Shown here: one piece after another, positions 6,910 through 46,425 of the stretch | Layout of the letters: every line of letters starts with the position of its first letter | Numbering within the stretch: position 1 is the first letter of the stretch | DNA from: Chloroflexota bacterium | Lineage (GTDB): Bacteria > Chloroflexota > Anaerolineae > Anaerolineales > Anaerolineaceae | NCBI GenBank assembly: GCA_019136215.1 | Contig: JAGVUP010000179.1 | Coordinates: 1 to 46,425 of the forward strand | DNA length: 46,425 nt | Direction of reading: 5' to 3' | Program-made: the position numbers and the translations under genes | Notes under the pieces: generated by a model | Databases searched by the model: none | Told to the model about the DNA's origin: nothing | Seen by the model: only the letters and a program-made list of their open reading frames with translations

Positions 6910-6926
6910 CTTCCTGTAATTGAATA

Positions 6927-7038
6927 CCTGAGGTTACCCGACGCCCGGACGCCAAGGTGTAATGACGGAAGCTGGTGAAAGGCCAGCACTGTACCGCAAC
7001 TGTAAGTCTGAAAGACAAGTCAGAAAGCCTCCCTCAGG
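6927..7038 (+). promoter_or_regulatory. Cobalamin (B12) riboswitch aptamer, compact form
   Basis: P1 pairs CCTGAGG (6927-6933) with CCTCAGG (7032-7038). The core GGAAGCTGGTGAAAGGCCAGCACTGTACCGCAACTGTAAG matches the conserved GGTGAAA...CCGC.ACTGTAA core. The B12-box-like AGTCAGAAAGCCTCCC lies at 7018-7033. The element is located 5' of a BtuF/BtuC/BtuD-like operon. Confidence 0.75.
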
Positions 7039-7097
7039 AAAACCCAACAATACCTTCTCGGATTAGGAGGGTGGGTGAGATTTGGTTCTATTCTCAG

Positions 7098-7145: not shown

Positions 7146-8396
7146 ATGAAAAAAATTGTAACCCTTCTAACTGTACTGTTCATTCTGGCGCTTAGCGCCT
7201 GCCAAGCTCCGGCAAAGCCGGTTGAAATTGTTCAAGAAGCCCCTGCCGCGGAACCCGTTGCTCCCGAAAGTCCTGCCGAAGAGGCTTATCCTGTCGAACC
7301 AAGCCCAGCGGAGACGGTTGCGGAAACCAGCCCCGAACCCGCCCCCGAAGAGCAGGTCACGGTTGACTATGCCAAAAACTTCACACTCGAGTATAAGGAC
7401 GGCTATAAACTTCTGAGCGTTCTAACCCCCTGGGCTGGCGCGGCGGAGCCTTTACAATATGCGCTTGTTCCAGCCGGGCAAGAGGACCCCAGCGGAATTG
7501 GTGACGCGATGGTGGTGCATACCCCGGTTGAGAGCTTCGTCTCACTTTCCACCACTTATCTGCCCTTCCTCGATCAAATCGATGAGCTCACAAGCCTTGT
7601 GGCTGTGGACAGCGGACTGTACACCTTCAATCCGGACGTACTGCTCTGGCTTGAAGCCGGGACGATCGCTGAGGTTGGCAGCGGTTCAATGATCAACGTG
7701 GAACAATTAGTTGAGCTTAACCCCGACCTGATCATGACCTCCGCCAGCGGTTTCGCGGAGTACGACTCGCACCCTCAATTGCTCGAAGCTGGCTTGAGCG
7801 TGGTCATCAATTCCGATTACCTTGAGTATGACCCGCTTGGTCGCGCGGAATGGGGCAAATTTATCGCCGCGTTCTTCGACAAGGAAGCCGAAGCTGACAA
7901 GTTGTTCGATGAAATGGTCGCTCGCTATGAGGAGGCGAAAGCGCTTGTAAGCAACCAGACTGAACCCGTGACCGTGTTTGCCAATACCGCCTATGAGGGT
8001 ACCTGGTATATGCCCGGTGGGGAAAGCTATATTGCCATCTTGCTTGCCGACGCCGGCGCGGATTACGTCTTCAAGGACCTCGAAGGCTCCGGCGCGCAGC
8101 CGCTTGATTTTGAGGTCGTGTTGGAACGCGCCAAGGACGCGGATTTTTGGGTCAACGTCGGAGCGATGACCGAACTGAAGGAGTTGGCAGGCATCGACGC
8201 CCGCTATGAGGATTTCGAAGCCTATCAGCAGGGCAAGGTTTACACTTACAGTAAGCGGATAACTGCCGCGGGCGGCGCGGACTACTTTGAGAGCGGCGTT
8301 GCCGCGCCGGACCTGATTCTGAAGGACCTGATCAAAGCCTTTTATCCCGACCTTCTGCCTGATTATGAATCGTATTACTATCAGGCGCTGAACTAA
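7146..8396 (+). CDS. Corrinoid/siderophore-type ABC substrate-binding lipoprotein (BtuF/FecB-like, cluster A PBP)
   Basis: The ORF track begins at 7119. I prefer the ATG at 7146, which has GGAG 5 nt upstream and yields the lipoprotein signal MKKIVTLLTVLFILALSAC. A Pro/Glu/Ala-rich linker is followed by a Peripla_BP_2-like body. The gene lies downstream of the B12 riboswitch. Confidence 0.8.
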   Translation: MKKIVTLLTVLFILALSACQAPAKPVEIVQEAPAAEPVAPESPAEEAYPVEPSPAETVAETSPEPAPEEQVTVDYAKNFTLEYKDGYKLLSVLTPWAGAAEPLQYALVPAGQEDPSGIGDAMVVHTPVESFVSLSTTYLPFLDQIDELTSLVAVDSGLYTFNPDVLLWLEAGTIAEVGSGSMINVEQLVELNPDLIMTSASGFAEYDSHPQLLEAGLSVVINSDYLEYDPLGRAEWGKFIAAFFDKEAEADKLFDEMVARYEEAKALVSNQTEPVTVFANTAYEGTWYMPGGESYIAILLADAGADYVFKDLEGSGAQPLDFEVVLERAKDADFWVNVGAMTELKELAGIDARYEDFEAYQQGKVYTYSKRITAAGGADYFESGVAAPDLILKDLIKAFYPDLLPDYESYYYQALN

Positions 8397-8424
8397 CTGT
8401 TGACTGATTTTTGAGTGTAAGCAG

Positions 8425-9498
8425 ATGACAAACAGCCTGAAAAGCAAAAAAGGTATCAAATCAAATCGCCTGTGGCTTTTTGGGCTGTTTTTGTTTGCGG
8501 TGCTGCTGCTCTTTCTGCTAAACATCATGCTCGGCTCGGTGCGGATCCCATTCAAGGAGGTTTGGGGCGTTTTGATGGCCAGGGAGGGTGTGCGGGAAAG
8601 CTGGGAATACATCGTGCGCAACTCACGCCTGCCGCGCGTCCTGACCGCTGCCCTTGCCGGCATCGCTCTGAGCGCCTCCGGACTGCAGATGCAAACCATG
8701 TTCCGCAACCCCCTGGCGGACCCATTCATCCTGGGCATCAATTCTGGAGCCAGTTTGGGAGTGGCGCTGACCATCCTCGGGACAGGTTTCGTGGGAGGAT
8801 TGTTCCTGCCGGCGGCGAATAGCGGGGGTGAGTTTACGCTCGCCCTGGCAGCCTCTGCCGGCGCAGGCGCGGTGCTCGCGCTGATCCTTCTGGTTGGTCG
8901 CTGGGTGAAAAACCCCACCACACTGCTAATCCTGGGACTGATGTTTGGGCATGCCACCAGCGCCATCGTCAGCATTCTGATCTATTTCAGCGCCCCGGAA
9001 CGCATCCATGCCTATTCCATCTGGTCTTTTGGCTCTTATAGCGGGGTCAATTGGACTCAGTTAAAGGTAATGGCAATCGTGATCCTGGCAGGACTTGCCT
9101 TGTTGCTGCTGCTCCCGAAAGGTTTGAACGCGCTACTGCTTGGAGAGGACTATGCCCGAACAATGGGGCTCAATGTGGGTCTGCTGCGTTTCGTGATCTT
9201 ACTCAGCGCCTCTGTGCTTTCAGGCGCGGTGACAGCCTTTTGCGGACCGATCGGCTTTATTGGCGTGGCGGTACCGCACCTTGCCCGAAATATATTTAAA
9301 ACCTCAAACCATAAAATCCTCATCCCGGCAATCGTTGTCATCGGCGCTGCCGTCTCGATGGCAGCCAGTCTCATTGCCCAATTGCCTGGCAGTCAGCTCA
9401 TGCTGCCCATTAATGTGGTGACATCTCTATTTGGCGCGCCGTTTGTGGTGTGGGTGCTGCTCAAGCGAAAGCGAGGTGCCGCATCGTTCAACGTCTGA
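8425..9498 (+). CDS. FecCD-family ABC permease (BtuC-like)
   Basis: The protein is 357 aa and very hydrophobic. GSVRIPFKEVW...RLPRVLTAALAGIALSASGLQMQTMFRNPLADPFILGINSGASLG is a typical FecCD/BtuC signature region. Confidence 0.9.
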   Translation: MTNSLKSKKGIKSNRLWLFGLFLFAVLLLFLLNIMLGSVRIPFKEVWGVLMAREGVRESWEYIVRNSRLPRVLTAALAGIALSASGLQMQTMFRNPLADPFILGINSGASLGVALTILGTGFVGGLFLPAANSGGEFTLALAASAGAGAVLALILLVGRWVKNPTTLLILGLMFGHATSAIVSILIYFSAPERIHAYSIWSFGSYSGVNWTQLKVMAIVILAGLALLLLLPKGLNALLLGEDYARTMGLNVGLLRFVILLSASVLSGAVTAFCGPIGFIGVAVPHLARNIFKTSNHKILIPAIVVIGAAVSMAASLIAQLPGSQLMLPINVVTSLFGAPFVVWVLLKRKRGAASFNV

Positions 9499-10505
9499 TG
9501 CCCCCGGTGCTGCAGACCAGCGCTTTGAAGATAGGTTATAAAAATGGCAGTAGAACGCCAAAAATCATCGCCGATTCTCTGGACCTGGAGTTGCGTGTGG
9601 GGGAACTTGTCTGTCTGATCGGACCTAATGGGGTGGGAAAATCAACGCTTTTGCGCACCGTTACGGGCTTGCAGCCCAAGTTGGGCGGTGAGATATTGCT
9701 CTCGGGCAAGAGTTTGGAAGCCTATGCTCCGCGGGACTTAGCCAGCCAGGTGAGCGTGGTACTGACCAGTCCGATCTCAGTTGGAGCAATGCGCGTAGAT
9801 GAACTGACCGCCATGGGACGCTTCCCGTTTACCGGGCTTTTTGACCGGATGAGCGCGCATGATTGGGATGTGGTGCGGCAGACGCTTGAAGTGGTTGGTG
9901 TGGATAAACTCCAGCACCGCTACGTTCACACCCTCAGCGATGGGGAACGCCAAAAGGTGATGATCGCGCGGGCGCTCGCCCAGGAACCGCGGCTGATGGT
10001 GTTGGATGAGCCGACGGCTTATCTGGATTTGCCGGGCAGGGTGGTGGTTATGAACTTGCTCCATGATCTCGCCTGCGGGCACGAAAAAGCTGTGCTGACC
10101 TCCACCCACGATTTGGACCTTGCCCTGCGGCATGCCGATCGGATTTGGCTGATGGACGAAGCGGGGCAGATTCTCCAGGGCGCTCCGGAAGATTTGGTTT
10201 TAAACGGCAGTTTCGCTCAAATCTTCAACCGCGCCGGTGTGCATTTTGATCCGCATTCCGGCACCTTCGATACGCAGAGCAGCGGTATAAACCCTATCTT
10301 CCTTGAAGGGCAGGGGCTCGCGCTGATCTGGACGCGCAAGGCGCTCCATCGGGCAGGATATAAAGTGGAAGAAGCCTGGACCCCGGGCTGCAAGCGTGTG
10401 CGGGTGGAAGACCAGGGCGGCGCCTACCTCTGGCATGCGGAACAGGATGGTCAGTCTGAAACCTTTCCGAATATCCATGCACTCCTGCAAAGGTTGTCTG
10501 CCTAA
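9498..10505 (+). CDS. ABC ATP-binding protein (BtuD/FepC-like) with ~90-aa C-terminal extension
   Basis: The ATG at 9498 overlaps the permease TGA (TGATG). Motifs: Walker A GPNGVGKST, signature LSDGERQKV, Walker B LMVLDEPTAYLD. Residues after about 245 form an extra domain not seen in minimal BtuD-type ATPases. Confidence 0.9.
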   Translation: MPPVLQTSALKIGYKNGSRTPKIIADSLDLELRVGELVCLIGPNGVGKSTLLRTVTGLQPKLGGEILLSGKSLEAYAPRDLASQVSVVLTSPISVGAMRVDELTAMGRFPFTGLFDRMSAHDWDVVRQTLEVVGVDKLQHRYVHTLSDGERQKVMIARALAQEPRLMVLDEPTAYLDLPGRVVVMNLLHDLACGHEKAVLTSTHDLDLALRHADRIWLMDEAGQILQGAPEDLVLNGSFAQIFNRAGVHFDPHSGTFDTQSSGINPIFLEGQGLALIWTRKALHRAGYKVEEAWTPGCKRVRVEDQGGAYLWHAEQDGQSETFPNIHALLQRLSA

Positions 10506-38187: not shown

Positions 38188-39453
38188 TTACCTTCCAGAG
38201 AACCGGGGCAGTTTTTTCTTCCAGGCGGTTGGAAGCATGGTGTCAATCGCGTCGTCAACGGTGACAATCCCCAGCATCGCGTTATTGTCGGGGTCGATCA
38301 CCGGAACCGCCATCAGATTGTATTTTGCCACGAGGTAGGCGGCTTCTTTCTGCGGGGTCAGCGGATTGACCACCACGACGTCGTCATCAAACCAGCTGGA
38401 AAGATCCTGGTCAAGAGGCGCCGTGACGAGATCGCGCAGGCTGATGACCCCCTGGAGCTTTTTGTCCTCATCGAGCAAATAGACGTAATACATGAATTCG
38501 TCATCTTTCGCTTCCTCATTGGTGCGGAGGTGATGCAGAGCTTGTTCGACGGAGAAGTTTCCGGGAACTGACGCAAATTCGGTGGTCATAATACCGCCGG
38601 AGGAATCCTCAGGATAGCGCAGGAGGATACGCACGTCCTCTTCGTCCTCATCTTCCATGAGGTTCAGCAGTTGTTCACTGATCTGGTCATCCATGTCAGC
38701 CAGGATGTCCGCAGCCTCGTCAGGGTCCATCTCTTCCAGGACGTCGGCAGCGCGTTCCGGCTGCAAGGCGGAAATCACCGCCTGCTGCACTTCCGCTGAT
38801 GACTCTTCGAGAGTATCAGCCAATTGCTCATCCGTGAAACCCTGCAGCAGGGCTTTACTGGTGTGGTGATCCAGGTCATTGAGGATCAGAGCGATGTCAG
38901 CCGGTTCCATCTGCACCAGGCGGTCCTGCGAGACCTTGAGGCGCAAGGGGTCATCATGTTCGATCGAAGCGACATCTTCCCAGGGAATGACATGGGTTTT
39001 CCATCGTTTTTTGAGGAGCCTGGAAATCGCTTTGGCAGGGGTCTCCAGCCCCAGACGGCGCAGAAGCCCTGTGCCCCCGACATCCACACCTGTAAGATAG
39101 AAGTTATTGTTCTTGCGGGCAATTTGCAGGTCGTTCACCCGCACCAGACGCTTGCCCTCCGTGTCAACGATTTGCTGGTCGAGCGCACGTTGTTTGAGGT
39201 AAAGCTCATGCCCGGCGGGTTTAAACATGTCTAATTTGGAAATATCCACGTTCAGCGTGATGCTGGGCCAGAGCGTGGCAATATCTTTCGCGTCGATCAG
39301 TTTGGGTTCATCGGAACCACTCCTGATGGAAATGGCTGTGATGGGAGGCATACTTTGGTCAGTTCTATCCACCAGAAGGTCATCCAATTTCCCGACGACA
39401 TGCCCAAAAGCATCCCAAACCTTTTGACCAAGTAGTTTGCTTAAATAGATCAT
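38188..39453 (-). CDS. Soluble PRC-barrel x2 / MgtE_N / CBS-pair protein (MgtE cytosolic module without the membrane pore)
   Basis: The protein is 421 aa. It has PRC-like repeats (LLGQKVWDAFGHVVGKLDDLLV; QIVDTEGKRLVRVNDLQI) and an acidic MgtE_N-like helix bundle (ERAADVLEEMDPDEAADILADMDD). Two CBS motifs follow (VISLRDLV; AVPVIDPDNNAMLGIVTVDDAID). No TM segment is present. Its stop lies 3 nt from the Nramp-like start. Confidence 0.75.
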   Translation of the reverse strand: MIYLSKLLGQKVWDAFGHVVGKLDDLLVDRTDQSMPPITAISIRSGSDEPKLIDAKDIATLWPSITLNVDISKLDMFKPAGHELYLKQRALDQQIVDTEGKRLVRVNDLQIARKNNNFYLTGVDVGGTGLLRRLGLETPAKAISRLLKKRWKTHVIPWEDVASIEHDDPLRLKVSQDRLVQMEPADIALILNDLDHHTSKALLQGFTDEQLADTLEESSAEVQQAVISALQPERAADVLEEMDPDEAADILADMDDQISEQLLNLMEDEDEEDVRILLRYPEDSSGGIMTTEFASVPGNFSVEQALHHLRTNEEAKDDEFMYYVYLLDEDKKLQGVISLRDLVTAPLDQDLSSWFDDDVVVVNPLTPQKEAAYLVAKYNLMAVPVIDPDNNAMLGIVTVDDAIDTMLPTAWKKKLPRFSGR

Positions 39454-39678
39454 CTCTCACCTCACAACCTGTATTCATTTTTGGTGAAAGCGAAAATCAC
39501 AAGGGACAGGCTCACTCACCTGCGCCCTTGCCCGCGGTTTATTTACGCGGCTGAGTACGGATGAGTGGGGAGTCCCTTGATACTTGCAGGGTCGGGTTGA
39601 TCGTCTGCAGATAAACTTTCACTTTCAAGTATCAAAACAAGGTCCATTTCACTCTCTCAAATTAGTGTTTATATTATA
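39454..39678 (-). promoter_or_regulatory. Candidate promoter (-10 TATAAT at 39673-39678) plus ~200-nt structured 5' leader of the sensor/Nramp operon
   Basis: The minus strand shows nested long-range helices. GATACTTG pairs with CAAGTATC. CAAGGGAC pairs with GTCCCTTG, and this helix encloses CACTCA/TGAGTG and the hairpin CCGCG-TAAATAAAC-CGCGG. A U-rich tract (TGATTTTCGCTTTC) follows. No known riboswitch class was recognised. Confidence 0.35.
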
Positions 39679-39899
39679 CCCCCTGAATCGCGGGAATGGG
39701 GGAAAATTTGGAAAAATTCTGTAAAATGGTACGGTTTTTGGGAGATTCGAGAAGGATAATGCAGCAAGTTGCAGCTTGACGGGAATATCAACGCGAGGGT
39801 AGAGTGTCCGGTTAGCCTGGATACGCACCCGAAGCAATCTTAAGAATTATGAGGTTGCGAAACAATTGGTCGTTCGCACTTTGCCGAGAAACAGACTGT

Positions 39900-40712
39900 T
39901 CAGATTGATTGTCGGTTTTCTCCAAACAGTTTGTTCAGCCTTGGCACTTGTTCTTCCAGCGCCCAGGTCTCTGTGCGCCAACTGAACCATTCCCCCACCC
40001 CGCCGTACTCAAACGCGACAATTTCCGGCTCGCGCCATGCCTCAGCGGCAATCTGGTCTGCAGCCCATTCCGCTGAGCTCCAGTCGCCCTCTTGCATTTC
40101 AAAATGATCCGCCAGGTAGCCGTGGTATGAGCGCAAGCCAGTGATATGAATTTCGTGCAGGCGCTCCAAAGGCAGACTCTCGATGTATTCGCGGTAATCC
40201 ACGCCGAGCGTGTCCGCAGAAATCCGCGCGTGCGAAATGTCCAGCAATAAACCGGTGTCGGTCTCGAGGATCGCTTCGGTGATCAGTTTCGGATCGCTTG
40301 CGAGGTGATACTCCGGTATCGGCGGTTCAAAGGGCAAATTCTCCGAGATGACGGTATAACCCGGGAATTCTCGTTTGAGCAGGTTGATTTCATCGATCCA
40401 GCGCTTAAGCAACGTGAGACGGTCGGTTTTGTTCCCAATCTTCAAATCTGCCGAGCCCGAGAGATGGCAATTCACGTGTGGGGTGTTCGTCTCAGCCAGC
40501 ATGCGTCTTAGCTTTGCATAGTCGAGGCGCTGAACCCGGTCCCTTCCGATCGTGATATCGAGATGAAGATAAACCGGTTTGATTGGTGTAGCAGCCTTGA
40601 GCAGCCCCTCCCACTCAGGACATTTGAACAGGTCAAAGTCGACCTTGCCAGCCATTACCAATTCAGCAAGTTTGGTTGAATAGTTGACGGCAAATCGCAT
40701 CGCTGACCTCAC
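39900..40712 (-). CDS. DUF692/MNIO-like (MbnB/TglH family) TIM-barrel metalloenzyme
   Basis: The ordered motifs VYLHLDI, VNCHLSG, VISENLPF, GLLLDISHARISA, LHEIHITG, YLADHFEM and IVAFEYGG parallel the His/Glu/Asp iron ligands and the LLLD(V)xN...E(I)HLAG signature of DUF692. The GTG at 40712 overlaps the upstream stop (GTGA). The ATG at 40700, with GAGG 6 nt upstream, is an alternative start. Confidence 0.6.
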   Translation of the reverse strand: MRSAMRFAVNYSTKLAELVMAGKVDFDLFKCPEWEGLLKAATPIKPVYLHLDITIGRDRVQRLDYAKLRRMLAETNTPHVNCHLSGSADLKIGNKTDRLTLLKRWIDEINLLKREFPGYTVISENLPFEPPIPEYHLASDPKLITEAILETDTGLLLDISHARISADTLGVDYREYIESLPLERLHEIHITGLRSYHGYLADHFEMQEGDWSSAEWAADQIAAEAWREPEIVAFEYGGVGEWFSWRTETWALEEQVPRLNKLFGENRQSI

Positions 40713-42544
40713 GCAGCCAAAGCTTCACTTTCTTTATCCGCGAAGGGATCGTACTTCGATTCGAGGTCCTGGCGGAACTGTTTGGTATAGAGGTTGTAGT
40801 AGTGCCCTTTCTTGCGCATCAGGCTCTCATGATTTCCCTGCTCAATGATTTGACCGTCATCGATGACCATAATGATATCTGCCGATTTGATGGTCGAGAG
40901 GCGGTGGGCAATAATGAAACTGGTGCGTCCGCTCATCAAATTGTGCATGCCTTTTTGGATCAGGGCTTCGGTCAGAGTGTCCACTGAGCTGGTCGCTTCG
41001 TCCATGATGAAGATGTCGGGTTCTGCCAGGAGGGCGCGCGCGATGCTGATGAGCTGTTTTTGCCCAACCGAAAGCAGATTGCCGCCTTCTCCGACGTCTT
41101 GATCGTATGCCTTCTCCAAACCCATGATGAATTCATGCGCTCCGGCAAGCTTTGCTGCGTGCTCGATCTGTTCGTCCGTCGCGTTCAATCGCCCATAGCG
41201 CAGGTTGTCGCGCACACTGCCCGAAAAAAGATGCGGAACCTGGAGGACGACGCCAATGCGGGATTGAATGTCTTCGAGGGAATATCGGGTATAGTCGTGC
41301 CCGGCAATGCGGATCACGCCTTGGCTCGGTTCGTAAAAACGGCAGAGCAGGTTTACGATTGTGGTCTTTCCGCCGCCGGTCGTGCCGACAAGGGCAACGT
41401 TCTTCCCTTGGGGAATGTGGAAACTGAGGTTTTTAATGACCGGCTCATCGTCTTCGTAATGGAACGAGACGTTTTCGAACTCCACATCGCCAACCAGCGA
41501 ATCCACGGGCAATAAGTTTTCCCGGTTGCGGATTTCGGGCTGCATGTCGAGCAGGGAAAACACCCGCTCAGAAGAGGCGACAGCGTTTTGCATTTCTGCA
41601 TATACCCGCGCCAGGTCCTGGATGGGCCAAAGGATCATCATGATGTAGGAAACAAAAGCCTGCAGCACGCCCACACTGATCGCGCCTCCCGCCACTTGCA
41701 GCCCACCCCGCCAGAGGATCAGCACAAGTGAAATAGCGCTGATAGTCTGGATGGTCGGCAGGTAGATGGCGGAGAGGAAAACCGCGCGGTAGCTTTCCTG
41801 ATACATGTCCGTGGAAAGAATCTTGAAGTCCAGCAGGTTCTGTGCTTCACGGCGCAGGGCTTTAACCACTCTGACGCCGGTGATATTCTCGTTCAGCGAC
41901 GCGGTCATCTTGGAGTTTGCCCGGCGGGAGAGGCGGTAGTGATGGTAGATTTTGACGCGGAATTTAAACGACACAAAAATCATCACCACCAGCGAAACCG
42001 CGACGATCATCGTCAGCCTGGGACTGAGCTTTAGCATAAAGTACACCGCAAAACAGATGTTGGTCACCGCCCAGACGGTATCCAACACACCCCACGTGAG
42101 CAAGTCAGCCATCTTCTCCGTGTCCGAAGTCACGCGTGACATGATCCATCCCAGTGGAGTCTTACTGAAATACGACAGCGAAAGCGTCTGCAGGCGATGG
42201 AAGAGTTTCTTGCGGAAGTCGTAGCGCAGTTGCTCGCCAAGCAAGCCGATGATGTAAATCATGATAAAGAAACCAGCTACCTGCGCCAGGATCACAAGAA
42301 TGTAGCTGCGGAATAAGCTGATCATTACCGGTAGATTTTTGGCGACGATGCCTTCGTCGATGATGCGCTTGCTCAACACCGTGTAGTAGGCGTCCAAAAA
42401 GGATACCAAAGCGATCCCCAAAACCGAGATGAGAATCAGCAGCCAATAGGGCTTCAATGATTTAAATAGCCGTCCGATGACGCCGCTCTTGAGGTCGACA
42501 ACGTCGTCCAGTTCTTCTTCGTTATATTGATTCGACACGGTCAA
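40709..42544 (-). CDS. ABC exporter half transporter (TMD-NBD), consensus-site subunit
   Basis: The protein is 611 aa. Motifs: Walker A GTTGGGKTT, signature LSVGQKQLISIARA, and Walker B IFIMDEATSSVD with the canonical catalytic Glu. Confidence 0.9.
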   Translation of the reverse strand: MTVSNQYNEEELDDVVDLKSGVIGRLFKSLKPYWLLILISVLGIALVSFLDAYYTVLSKRIIDEGIVAKNLPVMISLFRSYILVILAQVAGFFIMIYIIGLLGEQLRYDFRKKLFHRLQTLSLSYFSKTPLGWIMSRVTSDTEKMADLLTWGVLDTVWAVTNICFAVYFMLKLSPRLTMIVAVSLVVMIFVSFKFRVKIYHHYRLSRRANSKMTASLNENITGVRVVKALRREAQNLLDFKILSTDMYQESYRAVFLSAIYLPTIQTISAISLVLILWRGGLQVAGGAISVGVLQAFVSYIMMILWPIQDLARVYAEMQNAVASSERVFSLLDMQPEIRNRENLLPVDSLVGDVEFENVSFHYEDDEPVIKNLSFHIPQGKNVALVGTTGGGKTTIVNLLCRFYEPSQGVIRIAGHDYTRYSLEDIQSRIGVVLQVPHLFSGSVRDNLRYGRLNATDEQIEHAAKLAGAHEFIMGLEKAYDQDVGEGGNLLSVGQKQLISIARALLAEPDIFIMDEATSSVDTLTEALIQKGMHNLMSGRTSFIIAHRLSTIKSADIIMVIDDGQIIEQGNHESLMRKKGHYYNLYTKQFRQDLESKYDPFADKESEALAA

Positions 42545-44348
42545 TTTCCTCTTTCAGGGCACTGTCAATCCGAGCCTGGATGTCGTAAATGTCCTTATAG
42601 ATTCCGGGTTGGCTGAGCAGTTCTTCATGCCCGCCCATTTGAACGATCTTACCTTTGTCGAAGACCAGGATCAGATCCGCATTCATGATGCTCTGAATAC
42701 GATGCGCGATGATGAACGTGGTCCGGTCGGTCATCAGGCTTTCCAGCGCCGCCCTGATCTGCACCTCCGTTTCCATATCCACCGATGAGGTGGAATCATC
42801 AAGGATCAGGATGCGCGGGTTGATCAGCAAGGTGCGCGCGATCGCCAGGCGCTGTTTCTGCCCGCCCGAAAGCGTCACGCCCCGCTCACCAACAAGGGTA
42901 TCGTAACCATTCTTAAAAGAAAGGATCACGTCGTGGATCGCGGCTTCGCGGGCGGCGTTTTCAATTTCTTCCTGGCTCACCTCACGGTGCACTCCATAGG
43001 TGATGTTGTCGCGGATCGAGCAGGAAAAGAGAAAGGGCTCCTGCTCCACGACCCCAATTTGAGAGCGCAAAAAATCCCGGGAGTATGCATTCAGGTTGAC
43101 CCCGTCCAGCAGGATCTGCCCGGATGTCACGTCATAAAAACGCGGCAGCAGGTTTACCAGCGAGGTTTTCCCAGAGCCAGTCGAACCGAGCAGCGCCACA
43201 ACCATCCCAGCCTGGCATGAAAAGCTGACATCGTCCAGAACCAGTTGGTCTTTCTCATAGGCAAAGCTGACTTTATCGAAGCAAATTTGCCCGCGGATGC
43301 CTTCTTCGGGTTGGTAGGTGCAGCCGGTCATATCTTCTTCCGGCGCCTGCAACACCACCGCGATGCGTCCGTACGAGACGAGCGCACGCGACGTGTCGAT
43401 GATGAGGCGTCCGAGGTTGCGGATGGGCCATATCAGCCAGCCCAACAAGCCGTGGAAACTGATGAAATCGCCCAGGGTGATGCCCCCGTTGAGCACCATC
43501 ATCGCCGCGTAAAAGTTGCTTCCGACGCTCTGCGCGGAACAAATAATATCCGAAAGAGGCCAGAATAAAGCGTGCATCCAGTTAAATTTCTTGCCAAGGC
43601 GCAATTTTTCCCGGTTTTCTTTATCGAACTTCTCGATCTCATATTCCTGGCGGGCAAACGCCTTCACAACACGCACACCGCTGAGGTTTTCCTGCAGGTC
43701 GGTGGAAAGGATCGCGCCTTGCGCCTGGTAAGCTTCGTAGGCTTTAGACAGCCGTTTGAAGAAAATGAGCGAGATGACCAACACGATCGGGAAAATGATG
43801 ATGGAAACCAGTGCGAGGCGCAGGTTGATCCGCGCAATGGCGATGAAAGAGATGATGAAAATCATTACGATCCGTCCCACACCAATCGCCTGGTCCGCGA
43901 AGAAACGTCGCAGTGTGTCCACGTCGGAGGTTGCCCGATCCAGTAAGTCGCCTGTCTTAGATTCTGAGTGATAGCTGTAGGAAAGCCGCTGGATATGGTC
44001 AAAGAGATGGTCGCGCAGGCGGCGGGTGGAATTTTCGGCGGTGAAATTTGCCATCCAACTGCTCATGAAGCTCGAAAGGGCTTGCAGAGCGATCAGCGCG
44101 CCAAAGGTCAGCGCTCCAAGTGTCAGCTCCTGACCGACCAGCTTTCCAACCATCATTCGGTCAATGAAATTACCAAGGTAAATGTACATCCCCGTGCGGG
44201 CAAAGGCTGCCAGGGAAAGGAAGATCGTGGAAACAAGGTAATGGAAATGATATCCGCGCATTAAATGCCACAAACTCAGCAGTTTATTCTTACTGCCGAG
44301 TACCTCAGGCATATCCAGCGGGATATAGGGTCCCTTAGTCTCGTTCAC
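42522..44348 (-). CDS. ABC exporter half transporter (TMD-NBD), degenerate-site subunit
   Basis: Motifs: Walker A GSTGSGKTS, signature LSGGQKQRLAIART, and Walker B ILILDDSTSSVD, where Asp replaces the catalytic Glu. The ORF track's start at 44645 overlaps the moaA remnant and precedes the promoter. The GTG at 44348 (GGAG 5 nt upstream) or the ATG at 44312 is more likely. Confidence 0.85.
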   Translation of the reverse strand: MNETKGPYIPLDMPEVLGSKNKLLSLWHLMRGYHFHYLVSTIFLSLAAFARTGMYIYLGNFIDRMMVGKLVGQELTLGALTFGALIALQALSSFMSSWMANFTAENSTRRLRDHLFDHIQRLSYSYHSESKTGDLLDRATSDVDTLRRFFADQAIGVGRIVMIFIISFIAIARINLRLALVSIIIFPIVLVISLIFFKRLSKAYEAYQAQGAILSTDLQENLSGVRVVKAFARQEYEIEKFDKENREKLRLGKKFNWMHALFWPLSDIICSAQSVGSNFYAAMMVLNGGITLGDFISFHGLLGWLIWPIRNLGRLIIDTSRALVSYGRIAVVLQAPEEDMTGCTYQPEEGIRGQICFDKVSFAYEKDQLVLDDVSFSCQAGMVVALLGSTGSGKTSLVNLLPRFYDVTSGQILLDGVNLNAYSRDFLRSQIGVVEQEPFLFSCSIRDNITYGVHREVSQEEIENAAREAAIHDVILSFKNGYDTLVGERGVTLSGGQKQRLAIARTLLINPRILILDDSTSSVDMETEVQIRAALESLMTDRTTFIIAHRIQSIMNADLILVFDKGKIVQMGGHEELLSQPGIYKDIYDIQARIDSALKEEIDRVESI

Positions 44349-44399
44349 AATAACTCCAATCAAACCAAAACAGGTCTTTTGTTTGGCATCAAGTGGAGA

Positions 44400-44428
44400 A
44401 GTATAAACCTCTGATCCTATTGAGTCAA
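44400..44428 (-). promoter_or_regulatory. Sigma-70-type promoter of the ABC-ABC-DUF692 cassette
   Basis: On the minus strand, TTGACT lies at 44423-44428, followed by a 17-nt spacer and TATACT at 44400-44405. The promoter lies within the non-homologous tail of the truncated moaA ORF. Confidence 0.5.
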
Positions 44429-44917
44429 AGGTTTTTGCAAGAGGCTGTGCAAGAGGCTGCTGAAAAAAACCGCTTCTTCCGCGGCGCGGATGCCTTCCAG
44501 GGTTTGCGCGAGCGAGCCAAGCCGCGTGATGTAGCGGAATCTCTCTGGTCGCAGCGTATCCAGGCTGATGTTCAGCCGGTCCACGCCTCCCTCCCGTAGC
44601 GGTCGGGCTAAGGCAGGCAAAAGGCTTCCGTTTGTCGTCAGACACAGCTCCTCAAGCCCCTCAAGCGCGGAGAGCATGCGGCAGAAGTCCACGATTCCCC
44701 GGCGCACTAAGGGTTCACCGCCTGTCACGCGGATCTTATTAATGCCGCACCTGACCGCGGCAGCGGCGATATCGCGCAGTTCTTCAAAAGAGCACATATC
44801 GCTGTGCACGCGCATTTTAACGCCCTCTTCCGGCATGCAGTAGCGGCAGCGGAAGTTGCAGCGGTCTGTCACGCTAATGCGCAGATAAGTGATGGGTCTT
44901 TCAAAAGTATCGAGCAT
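44417..44917 (-). pseudogene. moaA: Truncated GTP 3',8-cyclase MoaA (radical SAM N-terminal half only)
   Basis: YLRISVTDRCNFRCRYCMP (the CxxxCxxC motif), KIRVTGGEPLVRR, LTTNG and NISLDTL match MoaA up to ...GIRAAEEA (about nt 44471). The frame then reads unrelated sequence and stops. The C-terminal ~180 aa, including the second-cluster domain, are absent. Confidence 0.75.
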
Positions 44918-44929
44918 AAGTTTTTTGCG

Positions 44930-45736
44930 TTAATTTCCAGCGCCCAATGCTATTGGGAATCCAGTGTGGGCGCGATCCTCACGGCTCAATCTATCCAGCC
45001 TCTTGGAAAGAAAATTGAGAGTCAGGTCATGCACTTTCTGCTGTTCATTCGCCAGCAGAATGACATGCGGCGAGTTTTTGAGGATGACCACCTCAAGATC
45101 TCTCGTACCGAGCCTGTCTTTCAGGAGTTTACTGGCGCTCGTTGGGACCGTCGCGTCTTTTTCGCTAAAAATAGCCAGGGTGGGCTGACGGATACTGCCA
45201 AGCTCCCGCCGCACGACTTTTTGTAATCGCAGCATCTCCGCGGCGCCTCTAAGCGGATAGACGTTGTAGCCTTTCCAGAGTAGTTCATTCGTTTTTGAGC
45301 GTTTGGGAAGGTGTTTTTTTACATATTGCAGCAGATATGCCCCCCACAGCTTGCGGACTTGCAGCGCGGGCGCGTAGAGCAGCAAACCCTGAATTTCAGG
45401 ATGCCTGGCTGCCAACAGAAGGCTGAGCAGCCCTCCCATCGACTCGCCCGCCACCCAAACCTGGTCGCACTGACGGCTCAAACTGGCGTATGCGTCTTCA
45501 GCGGATCGGAGCCAATCCTGCCAGCGTGTTCGGTTCAGGTCATCAGGATGGGCACCGTGCCCGGGCAAAAGCGGCGCGCTGACGCTGAAGCCATTGCGGT
45601 GCAGCAGTTCGCCAAGCGGGCGTACTTCCGCAGTCGTTGCCGTGTAGCCATGCAGCAGTAAAACACCATTCTTTCCGCCTTGAAACGTGAATGCCCCGCC
45701 TTCTAACTCCGGATGGATAATGTAGTTCTCACCCAT
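44930..45736 (-). CDS. Alpha/beta-fold hydrolase (carboxylesterase/lysophospholipase-like)
   Basis: The protein is 268 aa. It has LLLHGYTAT, the nucleophile elbow GESMGG, and a C-terminal His region (NSPHVI). Confidence 0.8.
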   Translation of the reverse strand: MGENYIIHPELEGGAFTFQGGKNGVLLLHGYTATTAEVRPLGELLHRNGFSVSAPLLPGHGAHPDDLNRTRWQDWLRSAEDAYASLSRQCDQVWVAGESMGGLLSLLLAARHPEIQGLLLYAPALQVRKLWGAYLLQYVKKHLPKRSKTNELLWKGYNVYPLRGAAEMLRLQKVVRRELGSIRQPTLAIFSEKDATVPTSASKLLKDRLGTRDLEVVILKNSPHVILLANEQQKVHDLTLNFLSKRLDRLSREDRAHTGFPIALGAGN

Positions 45737-46002: not shown

Positions 46003-46425
46003 CTATCCTCTGCTATAACCCGGACAGTTGAAACCCACCCCGCTTATCAGTTTCACCATCCGCTTCAAATTCAGTACGATCGCGGTAAGATATGCCTGAA
46101 CCCCATACTTCTCCAACCCAATATACCGGCAGCGCCCTAATCCATGCCGCAGTTTGGCTTCCCCAAATTTGCGCTCAATCTTATACCGCTCCCGTTTCCC
46201 CTGCTGGTATTCCTCCGTCCCGACCATATCTTGCCGAACCTCTTTATTGCTGTCTTTCTTTTTCAGGCGATTATCCTTCAACAAGATCGCGGAATGTAAG
46301 CCTTTATACGCCAGATAATAGTGATTGTTGCCATCGTCATAGCCCCGATCAGCCGCGTAGGTCTCCACCGGCAAACCCTGTTCCATGTCCATCTCCACCA
46401 GGCTGCTGAAGTGTTTTCCGTCCCA
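46003..46425 (-). mobile_element. IS4/IS5-superfamily DDE transposase gene, 3' part (5' end beyond the window)
   Basis: ADRGYD...YKIERKFGEAKLRHGLGRCRYIGLEKYGVQAYLTAIVLNLKRM is the conserved C-terminal DDE_Tnp_1 region. The reading frame stays open to nt 46425. The IS end must lie between about 45890 and 46003. Confidence 0.75.

Follow-up and report, generated by a model that had tools for sequence, protein, structure and literature searches.

The stretch analysed here, 46,425 nt of a contig from a member of the Anaerolineaceae (hereafter the window), carries on its minus strand, between 44428 and 39900, three genes that lie in the same orientation 3′ of a sigma-70-type promoter. [quoted passage not shown] An initial annotation of the window had described this cassette and had considered that it might be a new system related to those making peptides that are synthesised ribosomally and modified post-translationally (RiPPs). 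About 170 related loci were examined overall, with flanks of 7-9 kb in the relatives, and the coordinates of the features are collected in Table 1.

Table 1. Features of the operon, of its surroundings and of one junction in related loci (window positions unless a locus is named; aa, amino acids)
Feature	Position	Strand	Description
Sigma-70-type promoter	44400..44428	(-)	TTGACT 44428-44423, 17-nt spacer, TATACT 44405-44400
5′ leader	44349..44399	(-)	about 50 nt; conserved TGTTTTGG...TTGGAG (ribosome-binding site)
ABC1	42522..44348	(-)	608 aa; GTG start 44348 after GGAG
ABC2	40709..42538	(-)	609 aa; most likely start GTG 42538; longest open reading frame from TTG 42544
DUF692 gene	39900..40700	(-)	266 aa; most likely start ATG 40700 (MRFAVNYS)
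Truncated moaA	44417..44917	(-)	166 aa: N-terminal radical-SAM half and 15-aa unrelated tail; outside the cassette
Terminator-like hairpin	44469..44485	(-)	GCCGCGGAAGAAGCGG and T7; from the terminator scan; where moaA homology ends, upstream of the promoter
Alpha/beta-hydrolase gene	44930..45736	(-)	Hydrolase_4, S33 type (Pfam)
Clade B ABC2-cupin hairpin	L007:7542-7623		equivalents in L010, L011, L068, L072, L079, L081, L091

The promoter agrees with the consensus at 10 of 12 positions and is the top match of a consensus scan within 39400-45000. Since promoter-like matches are not rare in this region (7, versus 3.3 ± 1.8 in shuffles), its main support comes from conservation: in an alignment of 12 species (the window and 11 relatives) the -35 box is invariant and the -10 box shows one difference, while the ribosome-binding site and the GTG start of ABC1 are also kept. 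Similarity to the relatives starts about 5 nt upstream of the -35 box, and the leader too is conserved in its nucleotide sequence. These observations bear out the initial claim that TTGACT-17-TATACT drives the three genes. A 9-codon open reading frame (ORF) had also been read in the leader (44389-44360); it does exist in the window, but its ATG is absent from the relatives and it is not conserved.

Start coordinates were chosen from homologue alignments, ribosome-binding sites and independent gene calls, and the 608-aa ABC1 gene is also called on independent contigs. The two ABC genes do overlap, as first described, although by 17 nt, counted from the likelier GTG at 42538, and not by the 23 nt that hold for the longest ORF. 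The GTGA overlap proposed for the second junction gave way to an ATG situated 8 nt after the ABC2 stop, on which the homologue alignment and the independent gene calls concur. No internal promoter or terminator stands out within the operon in the scan of this region. The conserved promoter, the 17-nt overlap, the 8-nt gap and the lack of any evident internal promoter or terminator lead us to regard the three genes as a genuine self-promoted operon on an Anaerolineaceae chromosome.

According to Pfam, ABC1 and ABC2 each consist of an ABC_membrane domain followed by an ABC_tran domain, with no further domain (9.6e-48 and 2.1e-31, respectively, for ABC1), and no C39 or other peptidase domain was found on either protein. 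The Walker B motifs are as initially read in the translations: ILILDD in ABC1, where Asp replaces the catalytic Glu, and the consensus IFIMDE in ABC2. The signature motif is the canonical LSGGQ in ABC1 and a degenerate LSVGQ in ABC2. One ATP site is predicted to hydrolyse, whereas the other, composed of the Asp-bearing Walker B of ABC1 and the LSVGQ of ABC2, is degenerate. The nearest solved bacterial structures to ABC2 are TmrAB (5mkk_A, 1e-114) and TM288 (3qf4_B, 2.6e-107), and the NCBIfam matches of the pump proteins are generic, all under the equivalog cut-offs. Judged from its sequence, the pump is an ordinary asymmetric heterodimeric exporter of the TM287/288 or TmrAB type, whose cargo is not readable from sequence. 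With TM287/288, TmrAB, BmrCD and LmrCD it shares two overlapping half-transporter genes, a transmembrane domain followed by an ATPase domain in each product, and the asymmetry whereby one subunit has Asp where the catalytic Glu would be and its counterpart a non-canonical signature. What distinguishes the window operon from these systems is the extra gene for a soluble metalloenzyme at its 3′ end; we know of no such gene at this position in the operons of characterised heterodimeric exporter pairs.

The product of this last gene passes the Pfam threshold for PF05114 (DUF692) over residues 59-204 (38.5 bits versus a cut-off of 25) and matches no other Pfam family; all 25 diverse relatives that were searched match PF05114 as well (best E 3.1e-13). 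PF01261 (AP_endonuc_2) does not match the window protein at E ≤ 0.01 and is weakly matched by 4 of the 25 relatives. An AlphaFold model built on 28 homologues (pLDDT 92.5, pTM 0.91) displays an eight-stranded barrel, for which the top Foldseek matches are TglH (8hi7_B, E 4.7e-13, TM 0.64) and MbnB (7tcw/7fc0, TM 0.65-0.67), followed by D-psicose epimerases and endonuclease IV (TM 0.57-0.62). The assignment to DUF692 made in the initial annotation stands on both counts, and the AP-endonuclease and isomerase barrels that it had named as competitors rank lower. Scores against the NCBIfam MNIO equivalogs are nevertheless all far under the cut-offs, with ApyH at 50.5 versus 400, BufB at 32.9 versus 310, HvfB at 21.8 versus 360 and ChrH at 17.5 versus 600, and the protein falls outside every characterised MNIO subfamily.

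In MbnB, Fe1 and Fe2 are bound by His54, His90, Glu133, Asp163, His192 and Glu239, and Fe3 by Asn166, Asp208 and His210, Asn166 being called highly conserved (PMC9060507). In the 266-aa numbering, the candidate ligands of a tri-metal site in the window protein are H46, H79, E120, D154, H157, H185, D198, H199 and E231. All nine are conserved among close and distant homologues, with H46, H79, E120, D154, H185 and E231 invariant or at least 90% conserved. Five of the six MbnB Fe1/Fe2 positions align directly with 3BWW, TglH or MbnB, while for E231 the assignment to MbnB Glu239 follows from a conserved position and spacing. The seven His/Glu/Asp motifs initially read as mirroring the iron ligands are all present in the translation, and the ligand positions align with those of MbnB, TglH and 3BWW. 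The third site is where this family departs from the known pattern. At the position of the MbnB Asn it carries an invariant His (H157, in the motif LLDLSHARI), giving D-x-x-H, whereas TglH and 3BWW carry Asn there (D-x-x-N) like MbnB, and the Fe3 Asp and His are present as the adjacent pair D198-H199, that is D-H instead of D-x-H. A profile alignment to E. coli Nfo (hhalign probability 48%) places H79, E120, D154 and H157 onto H109, E145, D179 and H182, and H185, D198 and H199 onto H216, D229 and H231. These Nfo residues are zinc ligands of endonuclease IV. A third metal site is plausible and would be of the endonuclease IV type (His-Asp-His) and not the Asn-Asp-His of MbnB; all nine positions of a tri-metal site appear to be kept in this predicted metalloprotein.

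By family and fold, the window protein is a relative of the MNIOs and belongs to a distinct DUF692/MNIO branch, in which every named member is from Chloroflexota. Like MbnB, TglH, ChrH, ApyH, BufB and HvfB, it combines the PF05114 match and a TIM barrel closest to TglH and MbnB with the His, His, Glu, Asp, His, Glu set of Fe1/Fe2 and a candidate third site on a beta-hairpin. It differs from them by the replacement of the Fe3 Asn and the contraction of D-x-H just described, by the lack of a partner protein and of an adjacent precursor, by its apparently vertical spread over Chloroflexota and, in Anaerolineales, by its place at the end of an operon for an ABC exporter. With endonuclease IV (Nfo) and the xylose isomerase-like barrels of PF01261 it shares the superfold, the nine-residue His/Asp/Glu tri-metal pattern and the D-x-x-H; it is set apart from endonuclease IV by the missing PF01261 match, by a TM of about 0.58 versus about 0.65 for MNIOs, and by the lack of any evidence for DNA binding.

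A search of 5.8 billion proteins returned 236 homologues, the named ones coming from Anaerolineaceae, and 283 species-representative genomes encode a relative of the DUF692 protein. The best 80 of these 283 genomes are nearly all labelled Anaerolineaceae, Brevefilum, Mesolinea or unclassified Chloroflexota; two bear the labels Patescibacteria and Marinimicrobia, which we suspect to be binning errors because the remaining ones are Anaerolineae. Ten reference proteins were mapped onto all 93 loci. Wherever enough upstream sequence is available, ABC1-ABC2 lie directly upstream of the DUF692 gene on the same strand, except in loci L085, which has a 5-kb insertion, and L086, where the adjacency of ABC2 and DUF692 is also broken. 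About 80 Anaerolineales species genomes share the gene order abhydrolase, ABC1-ABC2, (cupin), DUF692, over DUF692 identities of 41-78%.

Two arrangements can be distinguished around this block. In clade A, to which the window belongs, an aminotransferase gene on the opposite strand is followed by the abhydrolase gene, ABC1-ABC2-DUF692, MgtE_N/CBS-Nramp genes and, on the opposite strand, a FecCD-type importer. In clade B (Brevefilum and others) the order is LarA-abhydrolase, ABC1-ABC2, cupin, DUF692, a DtxR-like gene and a helix-turn-helix gene. The clade B cupin has 126 aa with its metal motifs kept, and the start of DUF692 overlaps its stop where gene calls exist. Between ABC2 and DUF692, nearly all loci that lack the cupin, the window among them, have a gap of -9 to 20 nt. 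Most loci of the two Anaerolineales clades have the alpha/beta-hydrolase gene upstream of ABC1; it is probably transcribed separately. Since the core block survives at 41-78% identity even though its outer flanks are not the same in the two clades, its conservation argues for more than chance adjacency or inherited synteny.

Outside this order the picture is different. An exhaustive profile search extends the family to 229 clusters (at 50% identity) at E ≤ 1e-30 and to 633 at E ≤ 1e-10. Identity to the window protein is 31-47% in the distant members, whose ligand set, D-x-x-H included, is the same; they do not keep the Cys of the KCPxW motif. Where named, they come from Chloroflexota, Anaerolineae or Thermomicrobiales. 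Their contexts are variable and the gene is often monocistronic. Among the neighbours are UDP-glucose dehydrogenase/HAD/PfkB, CorA, MgtC, Era, an aldo-keto reductase, a Zn-dependent alcohol dehydrogenase, YceG and a GH20 glycosidase/PPTase pair. Conservation of the ABC-ABC-DUF692 order, which the initial annotation had asked about, is thus a feature of the roughly 80 Anaerolineales genomes and does not extend beyond Anaerolineales, where homologues of 31-42% identity are never found beside this pump. Likewise, the observation that it would have held against a real association, homologues that never co-occur with ABC exporters, is made for the distant homologues and not for the close ones.

MNIOs characterised so far, as reviewed, all act on RiPP precursors, usually together with a partner protein, MovX being one that needs no separate partner; according to the same review a few MNIOs may work without one (PMC12452194). 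Neither in the window nor in the approximately 170 related loci did we find a partner of the MbnC, TglI, DUF2063 or PME type, and none of the neighbourhoods examined encodes a RiPP recognition element (RRE), a protease, a peptidase or a radical-SAM maturase family. Six-frame clustering of eight loci together with intergenic inspection revealed no conserved small ORF in the operon or its leader, nearly all small-ORF matches in the eight loci being shadows of large genes. The ABC2-DUF692 gaps of -9 to 20 nt leave no room for a peptide gene at the junctions. The rest of the window is ordinary chromosome, with a Glu/Gln-type (class Ic) tRNA synthetase, an aldolase, pst genes, a P-type ATPase, MsrA and a pseudouridine/sugar island. 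The first reading, that neither partner nor precursor is visible, therefore applies to the operon and its flanks both here and in the relatives. A 34-codon upstream ORF at 39647-39543 was considered as a precursor and rejected: it tracks the MgtE_N gene, with which it stays in locus L063 even though that gene lies 6.6 kb from DUF692 there, and none of the clade B loci examined contains it.

The DUF692 gene is spread lineage-wide and apparently vertically, unlike a patchy biosynthetic cluster. The locus does resemble RiPP clusters with dedicated exporters of the PCAT or NHLP type, in that a member of a modifying-enzyme family is encoded together with an ABC exporter. It differs from them by having no precursor, no leader-recognition protein and no C39 domain, and by not being patchy. 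Small clusters that lack precursors are described in a published survey of MNIO gene clusters, the main text of which mentions neither Chloroflexota nor ABC transporters; our literature search found no paper linking DUF692/MNIO to Anaerolineae or Chloroflexota.

The reading to which we lean, while giving it slightly less than an even chance, is that of a partner-less, non-RiPP enzyme which acts alone and is linked to efflux in Anaerolineales. The DUF692 enzyme would need no leader-binding partner and its substrate would be non-ribosomal, for instance a small metabolite or a short free peptide, and the pump would either export its product or remove a compound that the enzyme also processes. The chemistry could be the O2-dependent oxidation known from MNIOs, or else a hydrolysis or isomerisation assisted by metal; a non-oxidative reaction deserves serious consideration, given a third site resembling that of endonuclease IV and close relatives that live in anaerobic habitats. 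Several observations weigh against this reading. Gene order is the sole ground for linking enzyme and pump, and none of 83 distant-member loci has a pump, abhydrolase or cupin orthologue. Known MNIO chemistry needs O2, and most of the close relatives originate from anaerobic digesters and sewage, which is awkward for an oxidase role. In about 9 of 19 clade B loci a conserved, terminator-like hairpin, CAGCCTTCCCAT...ATGGGAAGGCTG and then a T-run, separates ABC2 from the cupin gene; it contains a promoter-like TTGCAG-17-TATGAT and may be a terminator, a promoter or both. Several other clade B loci have 0.7-5 kb inserted at the same junction. This hairpin and these insertions suggest that cupin-DUF692 may be the oldest, ancestral tight unit, with the pump as a mere neighbour. 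Furthermore, a remote precursor or partner could lie beyond the 46-kb window and the 7-9 kb flanks. The clade B junctions, together with the distant members that are monocistronic or sit in unrelated contexts, none with the pump, and the broken adjacency in L085 and L086, are what co-location without shared function would predict, an account that we find unlikely without dismissing it. The protein would then be a stand-alone Chloroflexota housekeeping enzyme encoded downstream of a generic multidrug-type pump, and the loss of the cupin gene and the intervening terminator would have left DUF692 transcribed from the pump promoter. Such an account sits badly with same-strand adjacency that persists in about 80 species genomes despite exchanged outer flanks, and with the narrow range of spacing in nearly all cupin-less loci, the window included; in comparative-genomics practice, a neighbourhood kept over such divergence usually reflects a functional link.

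The nature of the reaction may be weighed separately, as an O2-independent tri-metal hydrolase or isomerase, phosphoesterase-like or of the sugar type, is compatible with either linkage scenario; such an enzyme would suit strictly anaerobic hosts. We consider this assignment improbable, but it has a basis in the invariant D-x-x-H as opposed to the D-x-x-N of MbnB, TglH and 3BWW, in the seven residues that fall on Nfo ligands in the profile alignment and in the match of PF01261 to 4 of 25 relatives. The psicose epimerases and endonuclease IV as next-best folds, the origin of close relatives in anaerobic reactors, and the HAD phosphatase and sugar-kinase genes beside some distant members go in the same direction. 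Sequence and fold are nonetheless nearer to MNIOs than to endonuclease IV or the epimerases, the alignment to Nfo is of middling probability, and some of the genomes that encode the family bear the label Thermomicrobiales, an order with aerobic isolates. Least probable in our view, and put at a rather small chance, is the RiPP-like system of the initial annotation, in which the MNIO would modify a remote precursor and the ABC heterodimer would export it. TmrAB-type pumps can carry peptides, and the PF05114 membership and the MNIO-like fold place the enzyme near proteins that, in PMC12452194, all act on RiPP precursors, MovX even without a separate partner. On the other side, the approximately 170 loci examined offer no precursor, partner, RRE or protease, and the pump lacks a C39 peptidase domain. 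The lineage-wide, vertical distribution, the scores far under the cut-offs of the MNIO subfamilies (those against ApyH and BufB included) and the fact that the sole conserved small ORF nearby travels with the MgtE_N gene are further points against it.

Inserted between the hydrolase gene and the promoter of the operon, the truncated moaA covers positions 1-155 of 336 of the NCBIfam moaA model. The hairpin at the end of the moaA homology probably insulates the operon from upstream transcription. In the relatives moaA is absent from this site, where 60-190 nt of unrelated sequence are found instead, which makes the moaA piece the newcomer. In 245 blocks of the public collection, for the most part sewage and digester assemblies, the truncated protein is found in identical form and with the genes arranged alike; it is thus real and common in the species and no assembly artefact. 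These comparisons make it a species-specific insertion beside an older promoter, the promoter and the cassette being ancestral. The initial remark that the cassette starts where moaA homology breaks off was right as to the position; the direction has to be reversed, moaA being the inserted piece. Further upstream, a transposase-like ORF fragment (46003-46398, minus strand) precedes the hydrolase gene, and same-species contigs (L178-L181) differ in this region, with an S8 peptidase gene, a phage Mu F-like gene or a DDE transposase gene. Such varied neighbours indicate a boundary prone to rearrangement. On the other side of the operon, some relatives have a stretch of about 1 kb made up of repeated elements (GTTCTCGCCGGTCTCC...GAGGGTTTCGACCGCCAGGTCTCC) between the DUF692 and MgtE_N genes (L001:8900-9500, L002:5330-5700); a 211-aa gene called there has no Pfam match and is probably spurious.

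The rejected precursor candidate is an acidic leader ORF of about 34 codons (MDLVLILESESLSADDQPDPASIKGLPTHPYSAA, 39543-39647, minus strand), present in all clade A loci 175-200 nt upstream of MgtE_N/CBS-Nramp. A -10 box, TATAAT, is situated at 39678-39673, and a terminator-like hairpin with a T-run follows at about 39500-39540. Codon entropy is higher at the third position (1.13) than at the first two (0.84 and 0.82), and because of this greater variation the ORF is probably translated. It resembles a leader-peptide attenuator of the mgtL style, with no match in Rfam. Another leader was noticed in clade B, where ABC1 is preceded by about 100 nt of conserved sequence of the form CTCGGGAACA...GCAAACCTCAC...ACGGACTGCG...CGCATGCC (L007:3740-3910 and 17 other clade B loci), itself preceded by an invariant TTGACA-17-GGTAAACT promoter. 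Some of its stems seem to covary by eye, and it is possibly an undescribed regulatory RNA. Rfam detected no known riboswitch in the window leaders or in clade B loci, and RNAalifold returned no consensus structure for the clade B ABC1 leader, from an alignment that is poor.

The Nramp, FecCD-type and DtxR-like neighbours had pointed to a theme of iron or manganese metallophores, which weakened on inspection: the FecCD-type importer stands behind a cobalamin riboswitch, MgtE_N/Nramp have a promoter and a leader to themselves, only in clade B does the DtxR-like gene lie nearby, and there is no convincing shared operator. In the window this cobalamin riboswitch lies at 6914-7050, ahead of the importer genes at 7146-10496. 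The importer is directly beside the Nramp gene in relatives, and about 26 kb from it in the window (~10500-36900). The intervening stretch contains four tRNA genes and a low-GC island (37-42% GC) at 28-34 kb of the window with sugar ABC transporter genes, flanked by pseudouridine-utilisation genes at about 25.8-28.5 kb. The separation suggests an insertion or a rearrangement.

The locus is not a striking anomaly: it represents an uncharacterised, partner-less Chloroflexota branch of MNIOs, which in one order has been drawn into the operon of an ABC exporter. A bolder proposal, which we regard as doubtful in its full form, is that this is the first MNIO/DUF692 branch to act off ribosomal peptides, a partner-less tri-metal Chloroflexota enzyme with an endonuclease IV-type site and a small-molecule or free-peptide substrate, coupled in Anaerolineales to a dedicated heterodimeric ABC exporter and, in one of the clades, also to a small cupin that binds metal, together forming an undescribed make-and-export or process-and-expel module. 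If true, a partner-less and precursor-less branch with an altered third site would widen the known scope of the MNIO fold, and the 266-aa protein with its confident model offers a small, defined target for new metalloenzyme chemistry. For genome mining it is a caution that a PF05114 match beside an ABC transporter is not automatically a RiPP cluster. Anaerolineae are abundant in digesters and sewage and poorly understood, and in these bacteria the pump-enzyme block marks a function apparently kept by selection.

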